A DNA stretch of 19,824 bases from NCBI GenBank assembly GCA_964619725.1, contig CAZUFC010000139.1, forward strand, positions 1 to 19,824, written 5' to 3'. Below, piece by piece: positions 4,673 to 19,670 of the stretch. This DNA is from an uncultured bacterium (lineage in GTDB: Bacteria; CSSED10-310; CAZUFC01). A model generated the notes under the pieces. That model ran no database searches and had not been told where the DNA came from. It worked only from the letters and a program-made list of their open reading frames with translations. The position numbers and the translations under genes were made by a program. Every line of letters begins with the position of its first letter. Within the stretch, counting starts at the first letter, position 1.

Positions 4673-6052
4673 ATGGACGCGGCGAAGAGCAACAGCAGAA
4701 GAATCTGGCTATTCATATTATTAATGAGTTTAGGAGTGCATCTTTTTTCAGTCGTTACCATTTTGCATCATTTGAAGTTTGCATCCGTTTTTCCCCTGGA
4801 AATACAGCCGGTTCAAAACGCGCCCGATTTACGGAAAATTATGAAGGCGGGTGAGCGGATTCCGCTTCAGAAAAAAACGATTGAGGACATTTTCCGGTTA
4901 AAGAAGGAAGTTCAACCGGAGAAAAAGGGCAAGGTAGAGACGCGTCTTCACCAGATACCGAGAAGGAAGGGACGGTATTTTTTCGATAGACTTTTTGCTG
5001 AGCCTGTTGTTCTGAATCCCGGTTATGATTTTTTTCAATTTTACAAGAGCGGCATAGATTTCAGAGAGGGTTTGGGGATTTATGAGAACTACGGGGAGGA
5101 TGAGATTGAGAGGGCGGCGGAGCTGCAGTCATTGACGCCTTTTCATCATCCGAATCGTTATTTGCCTGTTTTCGCGGTACCGACAGGCATTGTATTTTCC
5201 CTTTTAACGCCCTGGAACGCTTATTTCTGGTGGCTGGTGATGCTGGAAGCTCTGCTGCTTTCATTCGCCTGGTATTTGTATAGAATGAGCGAGCGAGCGA
5301 GCGTTACGCCTGCGGCTCTATCGATGTTGTTTGGGTTCGTGCCGTTTTACCTGGAGTTGTATTTGGGACAGACGTCATTCATTGTCGGTTTATGTCTGGT
5401 TTTCATTATTGTGGGGATGGAAAAAAACAGAAGCATATTGACTGGAATCGCTTTTTTCATCGGCACGGCCATTAAGTTAATTCCCTTGTATCTGGGATTC
5501 TATTTTTTACGGAAAAGAAGATGGTTCACACTGATCTTACCGGTGTCGGCAGTCGTTGTGCTGTCGGGGCTATATTTTTTGGACCGGCCTGAGGATTTCG
5601 ATGTATTCTGGTCTTGGATGCTGGGTGAGGAGAAGGTGCCGAGTGTGAATTTTCGAGGCTTGATGGATTATTTTTTCCCGGAATGGAGCATTGCTGTCAT
5701 TTTGGCGCTGATTTTAGCCGGCGCTGCTTTAAGGACCTTCGGAAAAGAACCGCTGCGGCCGCATGCCGCTGTGTTGCTTTGGATTTCCGTTTATTTTCTG
5801 ACTTACAATCATGTGTGGCAACACCATTACAATTTATTTATTCCGCTATTCGCGTATCTTCTCATAAAAACAGGCGACCACCGCCTGTGGATACCGTTTA
5901 TTGCGACAGCGTTTCCTTCGCATGTTCTGGGTGGCGCCGGCGGCGGAAGAGCCCTGTCGCTGATACTGGTCAGAACGCCGAAAATCGCAGGCGTGCTGTG
6001 GATGTATTTTTATGCGATGCGGAAAAATGACGGATATGAAAATCAAAATTGA
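4673..6052 (+). CDS. GT-C fold membrane glycosyltransferase, GT87/DUF2029-like
   Basis: YDF..FY, YLP, LGQ, IKL.P and W.HHY motifs with about 10 hydrophobic segments; ~90-aa basic soluble loop after the first TM; start ATG 4673 (GTG 4670 alternative). Confidence 0.7.
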   Translation: MDAAKSNSRRIWLFILLMSLGVHLFSVVTILHHLKFASVFPLEIQPVQNAPDLRKIMKAGERIPLQKKTIEDIFRLKKEVQPEKKGKVETRLHQIPRRKGRYFFDRLFAEPVVLNPGYDFFQFYKSGIDFREGLGIYENYGEDEIERAAELQSLTPFHHPNRYLPVFAVPTGIVFSLLTPWNAYFWWLVMLEALLLSFAWYLYRMSERASVTPAALSMLFGFVPFYLELYLGQTSFIVGLCLVFIIVGMEKNRSILTGIAFFIGTAIKLIPLYLGFYFLRKRRWFTLILPVSAVVVLSGLYFLDRPEDFDVFWSWMLGEEKVPSVNFRGLMDYFFPEWSIAVILALILAGAALRTFGKEPLRPHAAVLLWISVYFLTYNHVWQHHYNLFIPLFAYLLIKTGDHRLWIPFIATAFPSHVLGGAGGGRALSLILVRTPKIAGVLWMYFYAMRKNDGYENQN

Positions 6053-8777
6053 GCAGAGACATTTAAGAGTCCCGGCTGTCCTGGCAGGATATTTTTTGTT
6101 GACGGTCATCATGACTTATCCGCTCGTCGTTGACTTTTTCACCGCTGTTCCGGGAGACGGAGGCGACGCTCCCGTATTTCTGAATAATCATTGGTGGACG
6201 AAGAAGGCGTTGACCGAGCTGCAGACGAATCCTTTTCATCATGAGTACAAATTTTATCCTGAGGGCGTCAGTTTGACTTTTCACACTTATACTTTTCTGA
6301 ACACGCTGTTGTCGCTGCCTCTGCAATTCGTAATCGGTACGATAGGGGCCTTTAATTCCGTTTATTTCCTTACTTTTATTCTTTCAGGATTCGGCATGTA
6401 TTGTTTGCTCAGGGAATTTCGCGCGCCGGTTTCCGCAGCCTTTTTTGCCGGTTGCGTTTACGCTTTCTGTCCCTATCGGACCGCGCATTCGCTGGGGTCT
6501 TTCAACCTTTTGACGACTCAGTGGTTCCCTTTCTATTTCATATATATAAGAAGGTCTTTTGACCGTCTGAAGATCAGGAATCTTTTTTCAATGTCGATAT
6601 TCCTGCTGCTTATAGGTCTGTCCGACCTAACCTATCTGATGTTCGCCCTCATGCTGATGGGATTCTACATAGCGTATCAGTTTGTTCGTCTGTTTATTTC
6701 CAGGCCCGCTTTCGTGGAAAAAGCCGACGAAACGGGACCGGACGCAAAATCAACGTCGCTTTTGCACGATTTAAAGCGTTGGCTTATTTTCAGTTGCCTT
6801 TGTACGGCATGTGCTGCTGCGGTCATTTCTCCCGTGTGGATTTCTGCATTGCTGGAATTGAAGGAGCAGGGAAATTACATTTCCAGTCCGTTAATCGATG
6901 CCGAGCGTTGGTCGGCCGATGTGGGCGCTTACTTGCTTCCCAGCATCTTTCATCCCATGATGGGCGGACTGACGCACCTTTTCAGGAACGTTTTCACCGG
7001 TTATCCAAGCGAATGGACCGTATTTCCGGGGTATATAACTGTGGGATTGAGCGTCATTTTTTTCCTGTTTTTTTCAAGGAGGCGTTCAGAGGGTAAAACG
7101 AGAGATTTATATTTCTTTTTGCTCATTGCCGTGATTTTTTTCATATTATCTTTGGGGCCGACCTTACAGATTTTCGGAAAGAAATATTTCGCCGGGCGCA
7201 TGCCGTTTTCCTGGTTATACTCTCTGCCCGCTGTATCCGGCGGAAGAATGCCGGCCCGTTATTCTCTTATGGTGATTTTCGGGTTGAGCATCTATGCCGG
7301 GTTGGGTTATCGCTGCGTTATCGATTTTTTATGCGGTTCTTTTGCCTGTAAACGCATAATGAAAGCGGCTTTGACTGCAGCTCTGCTGTATGAATTCTGG
7401 CCTTTTCCTTTGGAAGTTCAGAGGTTGGAGGTTCCGGACATCTACAGGGAAATAGCGCAGGAAGAGGGAGATTTTACTGTTCTGGAGGTTCCGATCGGGA
7501 TACGAAGCGGCACTTATGCAGACATGACGGAACGTTCTATTTACGAATATTATCAAACCGTGCATGAAAAAAGACTGTTAAGCGGTATGGCCGCGCGTCT
7601 CCCCTTCCGTCATATCAGTTACAGACGTTCTGTTCCGTTTATTTCCGATTTGTATAAAGCCGGCAAGGGGGAAATTGATTTTCCGGAAGTCGATCAGGAT
7701 TACAGGGCCGGCGCTTACAGGGTTCTGAGGTTCTTGAGCGTAAAATACATAATTCTTCACGAAGCTACGCCGGTGCACGGTTGGACAACAACCCGCGAAA
7801 TTCTGAAACAAATGCGTTCCTGGTTGTCCGATGTGCTGGCAAGAGAACCTGACAGGATTCTAAATCAAAGCCAGGGAAGCATCTATATATGGAAGCGGAA
7901 GGATTGGAACCGGCGCTCCGAAAAGAAAAGGAAAACAGTAGATTTCGGAACCAGGGAAGCCCGCATGCATCTTCCGGTTTCATGCGGACCGGAACGAAAT
8001 TGGGATGAGCATACATTAATCGTTTGCCATGGTGACGTTATCGACACGTTTATAAGATTTGACGAAAAGAGAGATCGAAAGGCGACGGCTGTCGTTTCTC
8101 CCTATTTTTTCTCCGACAGAATACCTGTTCCCTTTGAGATAAAAATATGTTCGGAAGAGGCTGAGTTAAAGGCCGTTTATTTGCGCGACAAGTGGGTGAA
8201 TGTGGAATTCGACTGGCCGGGCGAACAGCAGCGAACGGGCATGAATCGTTTGACGATCAGGAACATGAGCCGGCCGGAAACGATTGGAGAAACGGAGAGC
8301 TTTTCGCCCGTCAACATCACGGCCAGGAGCGGAATATGGAAAGATGAGCCGAGGGGCGACGTCTATCGGGCCGGAGTCAATGTGGCTTTACCGGTTGAAG
8401 GATTCCAGGCTGCAGTCATTGATGCGGAAAACGGCGCCGTACTATGGCAGCAGAGCTTTCAGGCAGAGGAAACGGATAAATTCAGGGATTCGCTGGATGA
8501 TACCCGGCGAGGCGCTATTGTTATTGTGCTTTATAAATCCGGCATCGCTATTCGAAACGGCCGGGAATGGGCTGAAGCGCTTCGACCGGCCGGCGGAGGA
8601 AAAGACGGCCCTTCAGGAAAGGGCATGATTTTCATCGGCGTAATGGGTGCGGATGAAGATACTGCTGTTCAAAGCTATCAGGAAGAGCTGTCGGTCGTGC
8701 ATATTGCCGGAAAAAATTCGAAGACGGCAGCTCCTTTGCTCCTGGATACTATTTCAATTGAAAATTATGAATTTTAG
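6036..8777 (+). CDS. large polytopic GT-C/YfhO-like membrane protein with C-terminal ILEI/PANDER-like domain
   Basis: GDGGD....NHWW, FYP.G.SL, AFCPYR, ILSLGP, R.PARY, YYQTVH.K.L..G motifs; C-terminal GFQAAVID...G.V....SF...GAIVIV...FIG resembles ILEI; ATG 6036 overlaps the upstream gene (6012/6027 alternatives). Confidence 0.62.
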   Translation: MKIKIEQRHLRVPAVLAGYFLLTVIMTYPLVVDFFTAVPGDGGDAPVFLNNHWWTKKALTELQTNPFHHEYKFYPEGVSLTFHTYTFLNTLLSLPLQFVIGTIGAFNSVYFLTFILSGFGMYCLLREFRAPVSAAFFAGCVYAFCPYRTAHSLGSFNLLTTQWFPFYFIYIRRSFDRLKIRNLFSMSIFLLLIGLSDLTYLMFALMLMGFYIAYQFVRLFISRPAFVEKADETGPDAKSTSLLHDLKRWLIFSCLCTACAAAVISPVWISALLELKEQGNYISSPLIDAERWSADVGAYLLPSIFHPMMGGLTHLFRNVFTGYPSEWTVFPGYITVGLSVIFFLFFSRRRSEGKTRDLYFFLLIAVIFFILSLGPTLQIFGKKYFAGRMPFSWLYSLPAVSGGRMPARYSLMVIFGLSIYAGLGYRCVIDFLCGSFACKRIMKAALTAALLYEFWPFPLEVQRLEVPDIYREIAQEEGDFTVLEVPIGIRSGTYADMTERSIYEYYQTVHEKRLLSGMAARLPFRHISYRRSVPFISDLYKAGKGEIDFPEVDQDYRAGAYRVLRFLSVKYIILHEATPVHGWTTTREILKQMRSWLSDVLAREPDRILNQSQGSIYIWKRKDWNRRSEKKRKTVDFGTREARMHLPVSCGPERNWDEHTLIVCHGDVIDTFIRFDEKRDRKATAVVSPYFFSDRIPVPFEIKICSEEAELKAVYLRDKWVNVEFDWPGEQQRTGMNRLTIRNMSRPETIGETESFSPVNITARSGIWKDEPRGDVYRAGVNVALPVEGFQAAVIDAENGAVLWQQSFQAEETDKFRDSLDDTRRGAIVIVLYKSGIAIRNGREWAEALRPAGGGKDGPSGKGMIFIGVMGADEDTAVQSYQEELSVVHIAGKNSKTAAPLLLDTISIENYEF

Positions 8778-8842: not shown

Positions 8843-9559
8843 GTGTTTCCCATTAAAGATTCCGTAAGATCGGAAAAATGGCCTGTGGTCACTATAATTC
8901 TGATAGGATTGAACGGGCTTGCGTTTTTATATGAATTGAGCCTGGGGCCGCACCTGCAGGAATTCATCAAAGCCAGGGCATTGATTCCGTTCAGATTTAC
9001 AGCGCTCATTCGTGAAGGATATTTCGGTGTGGCGTTTTTACAGGTTTTAACGAGCATGTTTCTTCATGGCGGGTGGTTTCATTTGATTGGAAACATGTGG
9101 TTTCTATGGATTTTCGGGGACAATGTCGAGGACAGAATGGGCCATTTTCGATTCATCATTTTTTACCTTTTATGCGGAATCATCTCATCACTCGTTCAAA
9201 TTGCGACGGCTCCTCAGTCCATGATACCGAATGTGGGGGCGAGCGGCGCTATTGCGGGGGCGCTTGCCGCTTACATGATTTTTTTTCCGAGGTCCCGGGT
9301 TTATACGGTCATATTTCTGTTTTTTTTCATTGAGATCATACAATTGCCTGCCTTTATTTTCCTGGGCATCTGGTTTTTAATGCAACTGGTCAGCGGTGTA
9401 GGCAGCCTGGGAGCAGCGACGGTGAATCAGACAGGGGGAATTGCCTGGTTTGCTCATATCGGAGGATTTGCCGCCGGATTCATATTAGGTCCGATAATGG
9501 GATACCGTTCCAGGAAGAAGAGGCGAAGGATATATCAGGATGAATATTTTCCCTGGTAG
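8843..9559 (+). CDS. rhomboid-family intramembrane serine protease
   Basis: TSMFLHGGWFHLIGNM, FGDNVEDRMG, catalytic GASGA and AHIGGF; GTG start with GGAGG RBS. Confidence 0.93.
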   Translation: MFPIKDSVRSEKWPVVTIILIGLNGLAFLYELSLGPHLQEFIKARALIPFRFTALIREGYFGVAFLQVLTSMFLHGGWFHLIGNMWFLWIFGDNVEDRMGHFRFIIFYLLCGIISSLVQIATAPQSMIPNVGASGAIAGALAAYMIFFPRSRVYTVIFLFFFIEIIQLPAFIFLGIWFLMQLVSGVGSLGAATVNQTGGIAWFAHIGGFAAGFILGPIMGYRSRKKRRRIYQDEYFPW

Positions 9560-9589
9560 ACATTTTGATATTGAAAGGAGGGAATTTCA

Positions 9590-10450
9590 GTGGAATATTC
9601 GTTCTTCCACGCGATATTTTGGTTTTTTCTTATCTTTGTAATGGCTTATCCGGCCATGAAAAAACGCATGCTGGAGGCCGCAAGGCTGAAAATGCTCAGG
9701 ATGATCGAGAAAAAGAGGAGCTCCCGGGTTATCGCGTTGATACACCGGCAGGAGGTGATGACGTTTTTGGGATTCCCCCTGATGCGTTTTTTAAATATAG
9801 AAGACTCGGAACAGGTTTTGCGCGCTATTCGAATGACCCCTGACGATATGGACATTGATTTGATTCTGCATACGCCTGGCGGACTCGTGCTGGCGACTGA
9901 GCAGATCGCATCCGCCTTGTCGGAGCATCCCGCAAGGGTGACTGTTCATATTCCGCATTATGCGATGTCAGGCGGCGCTTTCATAGCTTTTGCCGCGGAC
10001 GAGATCATTATGGACAAAAACGCCGTCCTCGGACCTATTGATCCCCAGTTAGGCGAATATCCCGCTGCTTCCATTCTAAGGGTCGCTGAACAAAAGAACA
10101 GGGAAGAAATGGAAGACAGGACGCTGATATTGGCTGATGTGGCTCAAAAAGCGGTGAATCAGGTCAGGGCCAGTTTGATTCAGTTGCTGTCGAAAAAAAT
10201 GCCGGAAAAGGATGCCGAAAAAGTGGCTGAAGTCATGTCTTCAGGGCAATTCACGCATGATTATCCCATCACGGTTTCCATCGCCGGGGATTTGAAATTG
10301 CCGGTTAAAACGGAGCTGGCGCCGGAGATTTACGAACTCATGAATCTTTTCCCTCAACCGGGCATTGGAAGGCCCTCAGTCCTATATGTGCCGACTCCAT
10401 ACGGAAAACCCGAAGGGCCGAAAGATAGAAGCGCAAATATCTCGCGATGA
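9590..10450 (+). CDS. ClpP-class serine protease (SDH_sah/DUF114 family) with N-terminal membrane anchor
   Basis: IDLILHTPGG, HYAMSGG, AADEI.M...AVLGPIDPQ, THDYPI motifs; GGAGG RBS. Confidence 0.88.
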   Translation: MEYSFFHAIFWFFLIFVMAYPAMKKRMLEAARLKMLRMIEKKRSSRVIALIHRQEVMTFLGFPLMRFLNIEDSEQVLRAIRMTPDDMDIDLILHTPGGLVLATEQIASALSEHPARVTVHIPHYAMSGGAFIAFAADEIIMDKNAVLGPIDPQLGEYPAASILRVAEQKNREEMEDRTLILADVAQKAVNQVRASLIQLLSKKMPEKDAEKVAEVMSSGQFTHDYPITVSIAGDLKLPVKTELAPEIYELMNLFPQPGIGRPSVLYVPTPYGKPEGPKDRSANISR

Positions 10451-10531: not shown

Positions 10532-10560
10532 TTGCATCTGAGAACCGGTTTCATTATAAT
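10532..10560 (+). promoter_or_regulatory. sigma70-type promoter of the DUF1573 gene
   Basis: TTGCAT (10532-10537), 17 nt, TATAAT (10555-10560); GAGGAG at 10619-10624. Confidence 0.7.
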
Positions 10561-10636: not shown

Positions 10637-11923
10637 ATGAGCAGTAGAAGTAAAAGGAATATTTATCTGATCGCGCTGATGGGACTCGTGTTTCTGGGGT
10701 TGTTCAGTTATCACGCAGGCCTGAAGGAGTTGTTGTTTATTGAAGACTCAGTTGTCCTCGCGGGTGATGAGGAGGGTGAAGCGAAAAAGCCCGTGATAAA
10801 GGAAGTGAGCGCGAAAAAGGATGAGATGTCCCCTGAGAAGGCGTCGCCCCAAGAAATTAAGGAAGGCGAAACGCCTGAGATCGAATTTGAGGAATTGACT
10901 TATGATTTCGGCGATTCCAAACAGAACGAAAGCCTGACGCACGAATTCAAGTTCAAAAATAAAGGGGATGCAGAGTTGAAAATTGAAGACGTACGAGCCG
11001 GGTGAGGCTGCACCGCTACTTTGGTTACAAACAAGGTAGTTCCCCCGGGCGGGGAAGGTTCCATAAAGGTTACGTTCAGCACACGCGGTTACAGCGGCAA
11101 AAGGTCCAAGTCAGTAACGGTAAAGACTAACGATCCTGATGAAAATAATATTAGGTTGACGGTATCGGCCAACGTCATAGTGGATTTTGAATTCAAGCCG
11201 AATCGAGTTTATTTCGGAAGATTGAATGCTCCTGAGCGTACAGAGAAGGTTCTGGAAGTGCATGCCAAGGACCCGGAAAACTTGAAAATTGAATCTATTG
11301 AGTCTTCATCGGAACATATCAAGGCGGAGCTGATTACGGATGAGTCAGGTGAGAAAAAGAAATTCTCGCTCAAGGTGATCCTGCTGGATTCCGTGCCGGT
11401 CGGCCGAATCAATGAAAACATTACCGTCAAAACTAACGTTGAATCGCAGAAAGTAGTCAAGATACCGATTTATGGTGAGGTGATGGGCGACATCGTAGCC
11501 GAACCGGAAAGAATCAATTTCGGAGACTATTCCAAGGAAACGATGTATGAAAGGACTTTCACTCTGAAGAGTAAAAAGGGAAAACCGTTCAAGGTCCTGG
11601 AAGCGGAATCTTCAGACCCCAGGGTCAAAGTGGATTACGAGAAAATAGAAGGTCAGAGCGGATATGAATTTACAGCCGGCCTGGACGAAGATTTTTCCGA
11701 GAAGTTTTTGAGAGGTTCGATCAAGATTACTACGGATCAGGAAGATCAGAAATTGATCAATGTCAGTTTTCACGGTTATTTTCGTTCTAACGCACAGCAT
11801 ACTAAACCCGAAAAAGCAGAACCGAACAAAGATGAAAAGGAAAAATGGCATAGATCGACAAGCAACAGAAAAATAGACAAAAAAGCGATTTCGACCGGGA
11901 ACAAAGACCCTGACTTGAAATAG
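10637..11923 (+). CDS. exported/membrane-anchored DUF1573 + tandem Ig-like domain protein, probable selenoprotein (in-frame TGA 11003-11005, codon 123), 428 aa
   Basis: ORFs 10637..11005 and 11021..11923 share a frame (offset 384 nt). The joined translation reads YDFG...HEFKFKNKGDAELKIEDVRAG*GCTATLVTNKVVPPGGEGSIKVTF, a DUF1573 domain whose CGC motif has TGA at the first Cys. N-terminal basic + hydrophobic signal/anchor. Confidence 0.82.
11015..11040 (+). promoter_or_regulatory. candidate bacterial SECIS stem-loop
   Basis: GCTACTTTG (11015-11023) pairs with CAAGGTAGT (11032-11040), 9 bp including two G-U; loop GTTACAAA begins with G, 18 nt after the TGA. Confidence 0.62.
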
Positions 11924-11942: not shown

Positions 11943-11977
11943 GCGGAGAACCTGACGAATGGTTCTCCGTTTTTTTT
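11943..11977 (+). terminator. rho-independent terminator
   Basis: GCGGAGAACC-TGACGAAT-GGTTCTCCGT stem-loop followed by T7, 19 nt after the stop at 11923. Confidence 0.85.
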
Positions 11978-11987
11978 ATATTAATGA

Positions 11988-15506: not shown

Positions 15507-18089
15507 TTATTCCGGTCCATATCCAAACGTCCAGTCGCCTATGCCTTCTTCACCTCCCAGAACGGAAGTAAATTCATAATCCGTCATGGCGCCCAGGAAA
15601 GCCAGACCCTCCATGGTTTGATTTCCTGTATCGGGCCAGACAAAGGGTTCCACGACGGAAATGACGGTCGTTCCATAGGGAACGTCAACCGTGTTGAATG
15701 CCGGTTCGCGGCTCCAGCCGTCCCAGAACCAGTATTCAGCGTTGATGTCCAGGATGACGAATAACGGTATGTCGGGCAGGGCGTACCCTGTATAATTGTG
15801 AAGGAAAGCTTTCAATTCGCATTCATCGCCCGGCGAAAAACAGTCATCAGGCATCTGCAGCGTAACTCCCAGTTGAAGGACCGGCGTCCGCGTATACGGC
15901 GGGGTGACGATCAGAGTGGGAGTGGATGTCGGGGCCGGAGTGACCGTAAAGGTATGCGCAGGCGTGAGTGTGTTTGTCTGTGCCGGCGTGGGCGACATGT
16001 AATGGAAGCCCATGTCGACTGTTCCTTCATCAGGCGCCTGGTCCGTCCTGGTGGTCAATTCGTCCAGACATATAGTTTCTTCGGGCGTATCGAAACATAT
16101 CTCCGAAGCGGGATCGCCGCCTGAGTCCACACATGGGCTGTCCTCATGCTGACCGGCGGCCGTTTGACTCAAATATCCGTCCCCGCAGATTCCCCCTGTG
16201 AAAAACGGATTCTCGTCGATGTTTCCCTCGCCCTGGAATCCTCCCTGAATGTCCGAATAGGTCACGTCAGGCTCCACACCGACGATCTGATCCGGCGCAT
16301 TGTCCCAGAATATGCTGTTTCGCATGTGCAAATCCGTGGAATAAGGACAGTGTACTGCGCCTCCGCTTATTCCCGCTGCGTTGCCTCGCAAAGTGCAATT
16401 TTCAACAATAATCGGAGTTCCATGCATTGCACGGTCGAAGGCCAGTCCGCCCCCGACGTTCTCCGCATAATTGTACGCAATGTAACAGTTGACTATCAAA
16501 GGGGAGCCGTAATAATCAAAAGCGAATGCGCCGCCCCACTGGTTGTTGGCGGAAGAGTTGAACATTGCCTCACAGTCCGTTATAATAGGAGATGAGACCG
16601 ATGCAGCAATCGCTCCACCCTCAAAATAAGACGCATTACTTATAAAACTGCAGCCGGTAATCAAAGGAGAAGATTCCTTGTTGCAATCTACGCCGCCGCC
16701 GATACCTGTAAAAATGCAATTCCTTATTATCGGCGAAGAACATTCCATATAAACTTTCCTGATTCCTCCTCTGCAGGTCAAGTCGGATAATTCCAATAAA
16801 TCGTCCTGATAAAAATACATACCCCAGTAAGCTTCCGACGTATGCAAGAAAACCGATTGCGCCGAAGTTCCCCTCACAGAAACGAATTCAACCGCAGGCA
16901 GAGGAAAGCTCTCGCCGGTCTCCTCCTCTGAATAAAGTCCGGTACCAATATGAATAGTTAAAGGATTATCCTCGTCGGCGCAAACTGTTTTCAAAGCCTT
17001 GTGCACCGTGAGAAAAGCAGTTTCCCAGGACAACCCGTCATTCTCATCGCTGCCGTCGACGGATACGAAAACGTCCTGCATGACCGGCACGGTTTCTGAA
17101 ATGCCGCCGCTTACGTCGAAAGCCTCCTGGGGCGACACGTAATAATCCGACTGATGCAGTCCCGCAAATATGTTGAAGCGGGCGTTCAGAGGAGTCTCCG
17201 GAATTTCCAGGTAATAACCCAGGTCAGCGCCGGCTCCGGCGTAATTGTTCTCGAACCGGTTCTCTGAACCAGGCGAACCTCCTATCACGGGACTGGGACC
17301 GGAATGACAGAAAATTCCCCCACCGTAATTCACAGCATAATTATTCGAAATCGTGCAGTTCTCGATCACCGGACTTGAATTGGGATCGCAATAAATGCCG
17401 CCGCCGCGACCGCCGTACCTGACCAACGCTGAATTGCCGGATATTAAGCAGTTCGTTATGGTGGGAGCTGTTTTGGGACCGCAATATATTCCGCCTCCTC
17501 CACCGTTTACTGTGTTGTTCTCTATGACACAATTATTTATAACGGCATAACAATATCCATAACAGCCGATACCCGCTCCCACATCGCTTACGAAATTGTC
17601 TTTTATTATACAATTCGATATTGAAGGATAAGAAAAAAGATTAACATCACCCGTGCAATCAATACCCCTCGATTCATGTACTGAATTGCCTATTATTCGA
17701 CAATTTGAAATTGATGGAGATGCACCTGACCACGATACGATTCCTATTGTTGCATTCCGGATTGTAAATCCCTCTAACACTGAATCAGCCTGTTCCTGAT
17801 CATGAAAATTAAATCCTGATCCTACTCCCTGACAATCGATAATGCATGCTTCACAACCCAATTCCGATAAAACATCAATATTTTTACCCTTAAAAGACAA
17901 ATTCATATTTCCCGCACCAACGTAGGTTCCATCGGCCACCAGAACAGTATCTCCATCAGAAGCGGCATCGATCCCTGCCTGAATTGTCGGCTGCTCTTCT
18001 GGAACACGGATCGTCGCCGGTCGAACGGTCAGCGACGTCAAAACGCATAAAAATACTGCTGCAAAAACTATAGACAGTAAATATTTCAT
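15507..18089 (-). CDS. exported right-handed parallel beta-helix (pectin-lyase-like/Pmp-like) protein with DUF1565-like module, Thr/Pro linker and C-terminal beta-domain, 860 aa
   Basis: Likely start ATG 18089 ([14 protein letters not shown] signal peptide; ATGA overlap with the upstream stop) rather than 18215; [17 protein letters not shown], repeated GGGIYC/GGAI...P.I.NC.I..N, VFVS..GSD.NDG.SW..AF.T. Confidence 0.85.
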
Positions 18090-19318
18090 GGCTTTGTCGG
18101 CGTTAAAGAAGGAGTTAAAGTGGGGGTCAACGTAGGCGTCCGGGTCGGAGTGAGCGTCGGAGTAATCGTAGGCGTATAACTGGGCGTTTCCCAGCGAGTC
18201 CAGTAAATGTTCCATCTGACAGGCACGGCGCTAGCCGTTGGAGTTGACGTGCAGGTAGGGGTATAAGAGGGATTACCGGACGGCGTCAGCGTTGGGGTGC
18301 GAGTTGCAGACTGCGTAATAGTCGGAGTTAAAGTCGGCTTGTCCGTGGGGGAGTTCGTCGGCGTATTCGACGGATTCCCCGAAGGCGTCAACGTGGGCGT
18401 CAAAGTCGGCGTCCTCGTCATGGTCCAGGTAGGGATTTCAGTCAGCGTACCGGTCGGCGTCGGCGTCAATGTCGGTCCGGAATCGAAAACCACATGCGGC
18501 TTGTTGGATATGGGATCAATATACAGATACACGAAACTGTGTTCATGATTAACCGGCGTTTCGCCGCCCGCCGGCGTCGGCGTTATGACGTGCTCCTCCG
18601 GAAGAGGCGTTACCGTAATCCATCTTGATAAGCTATAGTCATATTGTTTTATCCACGGATTCACGTCATGCCCTAAAAAAGCGATGTAAATATCGTTTAT
18701 GTCCGATCCTTCCTTCACTATATCCATAACCGGTCCGGCATCTACGCCCTCAGGCGGCGCTGCTGCTATGGGCGTGGGATCGCTGTATATCGGCGTAGGA
18801 CTTTTAAGAACTTCGACCAGATAATATCCCCGCTCATCTTCATCATCAGTAGTCGCTTTCAAATAGGCTATGAATATCCTGCCGTCCGGTCTGACCTTAA
18901 TGGACGGCCTGTAACCGAAACGGGTGTAAGGTATCTCACTGTCGAACCAGGCATCCTCCGACCTGTCGTACATCGTATGAATTATCGCTTCAGCCTTGCC
19001 GATCGGAAAATCCCACGAGGCTATATGCACGTCCCCTGAATCATCCACGTCGGCAGACGGCCCCATGTCCGCTATCCATCCCGTCTCCGCAGAACCTGCA
19101 TTCGATGCCTGGTATACGCTTATGAACTCACCGTCATACAGGTAATTGCCCTCTCCCTCGTAAGCCCGGTTTGTCGCCTTCGCCATATCCTCGTTTCCGG
19201 CTGCTTTTATCGTACCCGTCGCAGCGATTTCATCAGGCAAAAACTGATTGATCGACTCTAACAAAGATGCAGAAAAACATGAGTCGATTAAAATAATAAA
19301 TAAAATTTTGGTCTTCAA
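18086..19318 (-). CDS. exported Thr/Pro-rich protein with beta-propeller-like repeats, possibly C-terminally truncated
   Basis: TTG start at 19318 with AGGAG 7 nt upstream and hydrophobic N-terminus; blade-like repeats ([39 protein letters not shown]) and long TPT runs. Confidence 0.7.
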
Positions 19319-19670
19319 TTTTTTTCTCCTTTTAATGATGTACCCGCTTAAATGTGCACATAATGTGCAAAATACGATTTTTATGGTGCTCATTAATTCT
19401 ATTACTCCGCCACGATTAATCTCAATACGTCCGTTTTATGCTTCTGGTCAGCTCATATCATCGGTCCGGCTTTCGCTTTCATTCTCAGCAATTAATACAG
19501 AGCAAATTCAGCGCCGGCTGTGGGAATAACGGCAATTAATGAATATCCATGAGTTCTGGAATTTTTTCTTTTGTGCATTTAAAGCACGGAACAGGCCAAT
19601 CGTTGTGTTAATATCCGGCCCTTTAATAAGTTTTCGGAATTGATCAGAATGCGTACTTTGAGGTTACAAT

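Follow-up and report, generated by a model that had tools for sequence, protein, structure and literature searches.

The locus at positions 10,637 to 11,923 of the window (the whole 19,824-nt stretch of DNA analysed here, contig C139 of the host genome) raised the question of whether a long reading frame interrupted by one TGA is a single gene in which that codon is read as selenocysteine (Sec, U), and what kind of protein such a gene would encode. The host genome comprised 9.17 Mb in 344 contigs and was 90.9% complete. Overall, the evidence set out below indicated that the frame is very probably a single gene whose selenoprotein product belongs to the known OS_HP2/DUF1573 'U-G-C' family, with hairpin-directed Sec decoding and an outward-facing, envelope-tethered Ig-like product. 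The gene and its internal codon were located as follows:

10637..11923, + strand: gene for a selenoprotein, 428 codons and a stop, codon 123 being UGA (Sec), with DUF1573 and NF041425 matches
11003..11005, + strand: UGA selenocysteine codon, aligned with TGA in 21 other distinct homologues and with TGY (Cys) in 12

The TGA at 11003-11005 shared its frame with the ATG at 10637 and the stop TAG at 11921-11923, and the window read GTA CGA GCC GGG TGA GGC TGC ACC around codon 123, giving VRAG-U-GCT. Translation with TGA as U produced 428 residues in which U123 was the single internal stop, while under table 11 the frame fell into two ORFs, one of 122 aa (10637-11005) and one of 300 aa (11021-11923). 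A large public protein collection held the 300-aa fragment alone (entry P0002), which showed that the ORF caller did split the gene, as a preliminary description of this DNA had proposed for a hidden DUF1573 selenoprotein. The same description had pointed to a frame that remains open long after the TGA and to a lone Cys two codons past it, and both were found: 305 codons were open past the TGA and Cys125 was the sole Cys of the 428-residue product. For annotation, the 300-residue fragment should be joined to the rest of the frame and named OS_HP2 selenoprotein.

A promoter and a terminator had also been described as bracketing the unit. The terminator was recovered with its T run, and the promoter only in part:

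10532..10560, + strand: possible promoter, TTGCAT (10532-10537), 17 nt, TATAAT (10555-10560), found by eye
11943..11980, + strand: intrinsic terminator, stem at 11943-11970 with 10 pairs (6 G-C), then TTTTTTTT (T run)

The candidate promoter had a perfect -10 box and a -35 box with only 3/6 matches. A consensus promoter scan reported zero sites upstream of the 10637-11923 gene, having missed this pair because its -35 box matches at just three of six positions.

With U read as C, the product scored 104.4 bits against NCBIfam NF041425 "OS_HP2 family (seleno)protein" (curated cut-off 100) and 123.1 bits against Pfam DUF1573 (PF07610; gathering threshold 26.1, E 5e-36), the latter over the whole profile at residues 82-180. 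When NF041425 was used in a six-frame search of the genome, in which a stop counts as no residue, the window gene scored 90.4 bits, under the cut-off. Three host paralogues scored 62-68 bits and are not members by that cut-off. OS_HP2 was introduced as a new selenoprotein family of the Olavius symbiont metagenome by Zhang and Gladyshev in 2007 (PMC1976440, Table 2), where two Sec sequences (symbionts delta1 and delta4) and no Cys homologues were recorded in the Olavius data. A 2008 ocean-sampling paper carries the entry "OS_HP2, pfam07610, UxC" (PMC2398784), and the figures of that row (2, 2, 354), which stand here apart from their column headings, were taken as two Sec sequences and 354 Cys homologues. 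The family also appears in reviews from 2022 and 2026, under the name "DUF1573 domain-containing protein, UGC". The high novelty assigned to the locus in the preliminary description was therefore not upheld, the family having been catalogued as OS_HP2 since 2007 (PMC1976440; PMC2398784) and as NF041425. In the main texts of the published descriptions of the OS_HP2/DUF1573 selenoprotein, neither a function nor a SECIS drawing was found, and the SECIS drawings in Figure 5 of PMC1976440 cover five other families.

Comparison of the window gene with the OS_HP2 family showed the same domain, Sec as the first residue of U-G-C(T) and abundant Cys homologues, with nothing essential different. It differed from its OS_HP2 relatives in having a membrane-helix anchor instead of a lipobox, in belonging to an uncultured microbial-mat genome and in being unannotated as one gene. 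The gene is a sound but ordinary further member of a family known since 2007. The OS_HP2 family is widespread, and its Sec/Cys pair on an Ig-like envelope scaffold makes it a sensible subject for initial biochemistry.

An AlphaFold model based on an alignment of 30 sequences, in which C stood for U as in all protein tools, had a mean pLDDT of 83 and a pTM of 0.65. The following parts were distinguished along the product:

10646..10729, + strand: hydrophobic helix at the N-terminus (AlphaFold, residues 4-31), either a signal anchor or a signal peptide
10880..11179, + strand: Ig-like domain 1 (DUF1573), residues 82-181, bearing U123-G124-C125 (Pfam and AlphaFold)
11186..11485, + strand: Ig-like domain 2, residues 184-283 (AlphaFold, pLDDT mostly >90)
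11492..11782, + strand: Ig-like domain 3, residues 286-382 (AlphaFold)
11783..11920, + strand: disordered Lys-rich C-terminal tail (AlphaFold, pLDDT about 46-61)

A disordered acidic/Lys linker was modelled at residues 34-68, and the U-G-C was placed in the turn that joins strand 114-121 to strand 125-129. The length of the C-terminal tail differed among homologues. The homologue N-termini were signal peptides, many with lipoprotein-like L-x-G/A-C boxes, and reading of the present copy by eye showed no good signal-peptidase site after helix 4-31. A membrane-anchored or exported tandem Ig-fold protein, as had been described, agreed with helix 4-31, with the three beta-sandwiches of the model and with the signal peptides of the homologues. 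An envelope-tethered, membrane-anchored or exported, outward-facing product is thus supported as a prediction from the model. The N-terminal helix would hold the protein at the cytoplasmic membrane, the relatives being mostly lipoproteins or secreted, and the three tandem Ig-like (ASH/HYDIN-type) domains would face outside the cytoplasm with Sec123 and Cys125 in the domain 1 turn. DsbA-like and DsbG-like proteins are periplasmic. Both occur as selenoproteins in the 2008 table (PMC2398784), and the earlier view that an exported location is unusual for Sec was not borne out.

The Cys-form DUF1573 proteins with the (S/T)CGCT motif, including the host paralogue on contig C28, had the three-domain plan, the exported location and the motif turn in common with the window gene, whereas they carried Cys in place of Sec, much weaker downstream hairpins and xPGxxG rather than PPGGEG. 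The product also matched Pfam PF22544 (HYDIN/VesB-like Ig domain) at E 5e-22. Tandem ASH/HYDIN-type Ig repeats of the ciliary central apparatus (9ijj, 7sqc) and of an uncharacterised P. gingivalis protein (2qsv) showed the same fold and tandem layout with Foldseek E values down to 1e-17. However, these repeat proteins are structural, have no Sec/Cys site and were only 10-17% identical to the product; the similarity is a resemblance of fold, not of function. A phmmer search of the product against the PDB sequences returned zero matches. A thioredoxin-fold thiol/selenol oxidoreductase was considered and rejected, as the product is an all-beta Ig-like sandwich with a U-x-C rather than a U/CxxC motif and had zero thioredoxin-type Pfam matches.

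For the working of the U-G-C site, the preferred mechanism is a redox-active Sec/Cys pair rather than metal binding, a preference held tentatively and at somewhat less than even confidence. The pair would cycle between selenol/thiol and selenenylsulfide on the envelope scaffold. Redox-active chalcogens one residue apart are known from the C-G-C tail of Erv2, and the N-terminal domain of DsbD is an Ig-like fold with a redox pair in the periplasm. These two systems may serve by analogy as a lead on how the site works, with no claim of membership. The three host paralogues varied at the site. The paralogue on contig C27 read U-G-S, with hairpin 2 (described below) kept, and that on contig C47, the closest (47% identity), read Pro-Gly-Ala; the frames of both were intact, which indicates that the Sec/Cys pair is dispensable to the scaffold. 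Paralogue C28 read C-G-C and followed an AhpC/TSA-Redoxin (TlpA-like) gene at a distance of 18 nt, which is a hint at redox cycling. A thioredoxin-like neighbour was clear at the C28 locus only: at a second locus the AhpC-TSA match was sub-threshold (23.4 vs 26 bits), at a third locus the thioredoxin-like neighbour was not recognised by Pfam, and none of the Redoxin matches listed in 22 genomes adjoined another DUF1573 match. The "CxC" may be catalytic, as the preliminary description inferred, but the intact U-G-S and Pro-Gly-Ala frames tell against this.

The same selenoprotein could instead use U-G-C to bind a soft metal such as copper, as an envelope metal chaperone or buffer. This is rather unlikely, even if two adjacent soft ligands on an exported beta-sandwich would suit such a role and published selenoprotein tables, including that of PMC2398784, contain the metal-handling families MerP, MerT, CopZ-like and YHS. 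Zero copper or other metal genes were found beside this gene or at 20 clustered homologue loci, and the sole copper-named match of the window was a weak NosD-type beta-helix 3.6 kb away on the opposite strand. Furthermore, only some 60% of the aligned homologues had His102, the nearest candidate for a third ligand. Gene neighbourhood likewise revealed no conserved redox partner beside the Sec forms in the window and the 20 loci. The neighbours in the window were a rhomboid protease, a ClpP-like SDH protease, an LPG-synthase-type membrane protein, KsgA and UppP, none of which recurred at the 20 homologue loci by ORF clustering. A housekeeping synteny block (amidohydrolase, FtsZ-like, acyltransferase, RNA methyltransferase, signal peptidase, aspartokinase and MurG-like genes) was present at nine of the 20 homologue loci, in related genomes.

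Decoding of the TGA as Sec was approached through the host machinery and the homologues. The sel genes that the preliminary description had proposed to look for were present in the genome: a tRNA-Sec (78.6 bits, anticodon TCA), SelA (480.5 bits), a SelB winged-helix domain (65 bits) inside a 657-aa open frame, and two SelD above the cut-off, one copy with its own in-frame TGA. A six-frame protein search of 61 genomes (the host and 60 relatives) at E <= 1e-10 produced 65 homologue matches in 22 of them, and 32 of the 65 had one in-frame TGA. At the codon of residue 123, 37 distinct aligned stretches from the fetched loci comprised 22 with TGA, 12 with Cys and three others, counts which, like the P values below, overstate independence, the homologue genomes being kin. 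The 22 TGA stretches were the window gene, one host paralogue and 20 sequences from 12 other genomes; the TGA was thus no nonsense mutation private to this strain. In the 12 Cys stretches, TGY stood in (S/T/A/P/G)-C-G/S/P-C motifs, and the idea that Sec replaces the first Cys of an (S/T)CGCT motif was borne out by this alternation. The three others were Pro (paralogue C47), Ser (a copy in genome G001) and one alignment mis-registered to the second domain.

The TGA was rechecked in the comparison contigs, which came from four runs, all DNA and all of one study. A second sample of this study yielded a contig that covered 10655-11124 with zero differences, the TGA included. Two of the contig sets (X3 and X4) had no coverage of the TGA, and the sample that spanned the whole gene (X1) may be the source of the assembly itself and was not counted as independent.

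TGA was the terminator codon in five of the 13 ORFs checked in the window (1557, 2414, 3591, 6052 and 10450), the first three of which had earlier been given as real stops; this points to site-specific recoding and not to an altered code. A reading of the UGA as a residue other than Sec, namely as Trp or Gly under an altered code or as Cys carried on tRNA-Sec, is for this reason very improbable. The inserted residue is indistinguishable from sequence alone, which leaves such a reading some room, but the homologues without TGA aligned Cys, and neither Trp nor Gly, at this position, and tRNA-Sec, SelA, SelB and SelD were all in the genome. TGA 11003-11005 is, on the sequence evidence, almost certainly a selenocysteine codon, and we infer actual Sec insertion at codon 123. 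The SelA, SelB, SelD and tRNA-Sec of the host would decode UGA 11003 as Sec, directed by RNA structure just downstream.

Two hairpins were found in that position:

11015..11040, + strand: SECIS hairpin 1, 9-bp stem with an 8-nt apical loop GUUACAAA (11024-11031), 18 nt past the UGA
11040..11056, + strand: hairpin 2, UUCCCC / GGGGAA with loop CGGGC (11046-11050), 40 nt past the UGA, encoding V-P-P-G-G-E

The published bSECIS model, as given in the Fig. 2 legend of PMC13188914, has a loop of 3-9 nt, a stem of 4-16 bp, a G in the first two loop positions and a spacing of 16-37 nt, with an MFE <= -7.5 kcal/mol. Hairpin 1, with an MFE of -8.5 to -10.9 kcal/mol and a loop beginning GU, lay within all four constraints of the model in that legend. 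A hairpin of at least five pairs was present at the hairpin 1 position in 75 of 76 Sec-form sequences, with a mean z-score against shuffles of -2.35 over the 76. Its stems differed among the Sec forms (CCUUGG/CCAAGG, CCGUCG/CGACGG, CUGUCG/CGACAG and others).

For the 22 Sec sequences from the protein search, hairpin 2 was the only helix kept in the RNAalifold consensus. Double changes from C-G to U-A were present in hairpin 2 at pair 42/50 in six sequences and at pair 41/51 in one. The helices of hairpins 1 and 2 combined had 87.5% of cells paired, and their covariation score was 0.254 vs 0.178 in shuffles, none of 500 shuffles reaching 0.254; the score was at most 0.146 in every slid register. 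The third codon positions in the stem of hairpin 2 were near-frozen in the 22 sequences (T in 21, G in 20 and A in 20) and the second base of its loop was G in 21, whereas four-fold sites in the loop and outside the stem varied freely. In the whole 9.17-Mb genome, the hairpin 2 motif had two occurrences, this gene and the Sec-form paralogue C27.

Both hairpins were much weaker in the Cys forms than in the Sec forms. The mean for hairpin 1 was -10.6 kcal/mol in the Sec forms and -5.4 in the 12 Cys forms (Mann-Whitney P 5e-5, overstated for such kin sequences), and for hairpin 2 -8.4 and -5.8 kcal/mol, respectively (P 0.008, likewise overstated by kinship). The peptide at hairpin 2 was PPGGEG or PPGEEG in the Sec forms vs xPGxxG in the Cys forms. 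A scan of 10900-11200 against Rfam (E up to 10) placed no curated RNA family on either hairpin. The only Rfam match in that interval was ClpQY-promoter, on the other strand, and was set aside as chance.

With a 5-nt loop, a G at position 2, 6 bp and -8.9 kcal/mol, hairpin 2 was within the limits of the bSECIS model and fell outside those of the legend (PMC13188914) on spacing alone, its 40 nt being just above 37. In the Sec-form family, the invariant G-bearing loop (CGGGY) sits on hairpin 2 at this spacing, and in the relatives G is absent from the first two positions of many hairpin 1 loops, both in contrast to the model. It is possible, and is suggested here with reserve, that the Sec forms use a two-hairpin SECIS outside the published model, with hairpin 2 as the SelB-binding element, hairpin 1 as a folded spacer and the RNA requirement fixing PPGGEG. 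Hairpin 2, near-invariant across phyla (UUCCYCC-GGG-Y-GRGGAA, loop CGGGY), would bind SelB. Hairpin 1, variable and covarying, would fold up as a spacer and so bring hairpin 2 within reach of the ribosome. The need for the hairpin 2 RNA would then fix PPGGEG in the Sec forms, as against xPGxxG in the Cys forms. If hairpin 2 is the functional element, it would be a clean case of an RNA signal imposing a motif on the protein, and would represent a bacterial SECIS class mis-scored by predictors limited to 16-37 nt. This arrangement may be the only addition that the locus makes to existing knowledge.

The spread of the Sec form was followed with an exact DNA pattern in one genome per species, consisting of UGA GGN UGY ACN GC, 23 nt and UUCCNCCGGG. 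A match needs both the 5' half of hairpin 2 and a TGY codon for Cys125, and the census of at least 113 stretches that it returned is biased toward Sec forms that bear hairpin 2. Among the 115 matches listed, 113 had a frame that stayed open over 50 upstream and 100 downstream codons and read U-G-C-T...PPGGEG, and the other two (L072 and L119), with stops nearby, were rejected as chance matches. All six hairpin 2 pairs were formed in 112 of the 113 open-frame matches listed, the 3' half of the hairpin lying outside the pattern.

The reading of the TGA as a true stop, by nonsense mutation or assembly error, with a broken gene or two small genes as the outcome, is the least credible of all and already close to refuted: the two ORFs under table 11, the ordinary use of TGA as a stop in the window and the 300-aa piece as the only one in the public collection speak for it, but it is opposed by TGA at the same codon in 21 other distinct sequences (13 genomes including the host), by at least 113 further pattern matches in several phyla, by the 305 open codons past the TGA, by covarying conserved hairpins that are much weaker in the Cys forms, by a complete Sec machinery and by the identical contig of the second sample.

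The Sec form, as the preferred reading of the TGA has it, was carried by a broad range of bacteria. Record titles among the matches listed named Myxococcota, Zixibacteria, Ignavibacteria, Thermodesulfobacteriota/Desulfobacteraceae, Acidobacteriota, candidate division CSSED10-310 and Glassbacteria, and the Myxococcota matches listed included the cultured carriers Enhygromyxa salina SWB005 and SWB007 and Plesiocystis pacifica SIR-1.

Three further DUF1573 genes of the window's own genome (G000; C, contig; L, fetched locus) differed from the selenoprotein gene at the U-G-C motif:

G000:C47:54154-55182 (locus L017:1255-2469), + strand, closest paralogue of the window gene (47% identity)
G000:C27:65086-65997 (locus L019:835-1980), - strand, U-G-S paralogue with a TGA in frame at the Sec codon of the window gene
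G000:C28:10331-11661 (locus L069:7792-9461), - strand, Cys-form paralogue with C-G-C

In the C47 paralogue, U-G-C was replaced by Pro-Gly-Ala and the first hairpin 3' of the UGA (hairpin 1) had decayed. Its frame of 405 codons was intact despite this replacement, and therefore the DUF1573 scaffold is retained there without the Sec/Cys site. The C27 paralogue carried Ser in place of the partner Cys, which produced U-G-S instead of U-G-C, while its frame of 382 codons was open and its second hairpin (hairpin 2) was perfect. The adjoining sequence of this paralogue contained a gene for a DNA methylase and a fragment of a reverse transcriptase. An AhpC/TSA-Redoxin, TlpA-like gene (168 aa) was located 18 nt upstream of the C28 paralogue on the same strand, and the two may form an operon which would tie the DUF1573 family to a periplasmic thioredoxin.

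Neighbouring DUF1573 copies were also identified in related genomes:

G006:C12, G012:C13, G009:C27 and G010:C7 (loci L055, L056, L058 and L063), two Sec-form genes in tandem
G003:C17, G008:C47 and G001:C154, Sec-form copy adjoining a Cys- or Ser-form copy

A pair of protease genes immediately preceded the selenoprotein gene and shared its strand:

window 8843-10450, + strand, rhomboid protease gene and ClpP-like SDH-type serine protease gene

This pair was not observed at any of the 20 other homologue loci compared.

Two SelD genes were found in G000, at C204:671-1600 and C59:48405-49325. The SelD on C204 had a TGA in frame at codon 10 of the match (context G-A-G-U-A-C-K). Two hairpins lay next to each other downstream of this TGA, and the loop of the second was GUU. 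The SelD on C59 lay within an open frame of 747 aa, which suggests a fusion. Further candidate selenoproteins of G000 were Redoxin-family matches, each of which contained a single TGA in frame:

G000:C25:58711-59151
G000:C71:15940-16353
G000:C56:35927-36295

Such Redoxin-family matches were also numerous among the related genomes.

Two other large ORFs of the window had no match in Pfam at an E value of 1e-5 or better:

window 6012-8777, + strand, 921-aa ORF
window 18086-19393, - strand, 435-aa ORF

The 435-aa ORF overlapped a 902-aa beta-helix/NosD-like ORF (15507-18215, - strand) by 130 nt, and the start of one of the two was thus probably miscalled.
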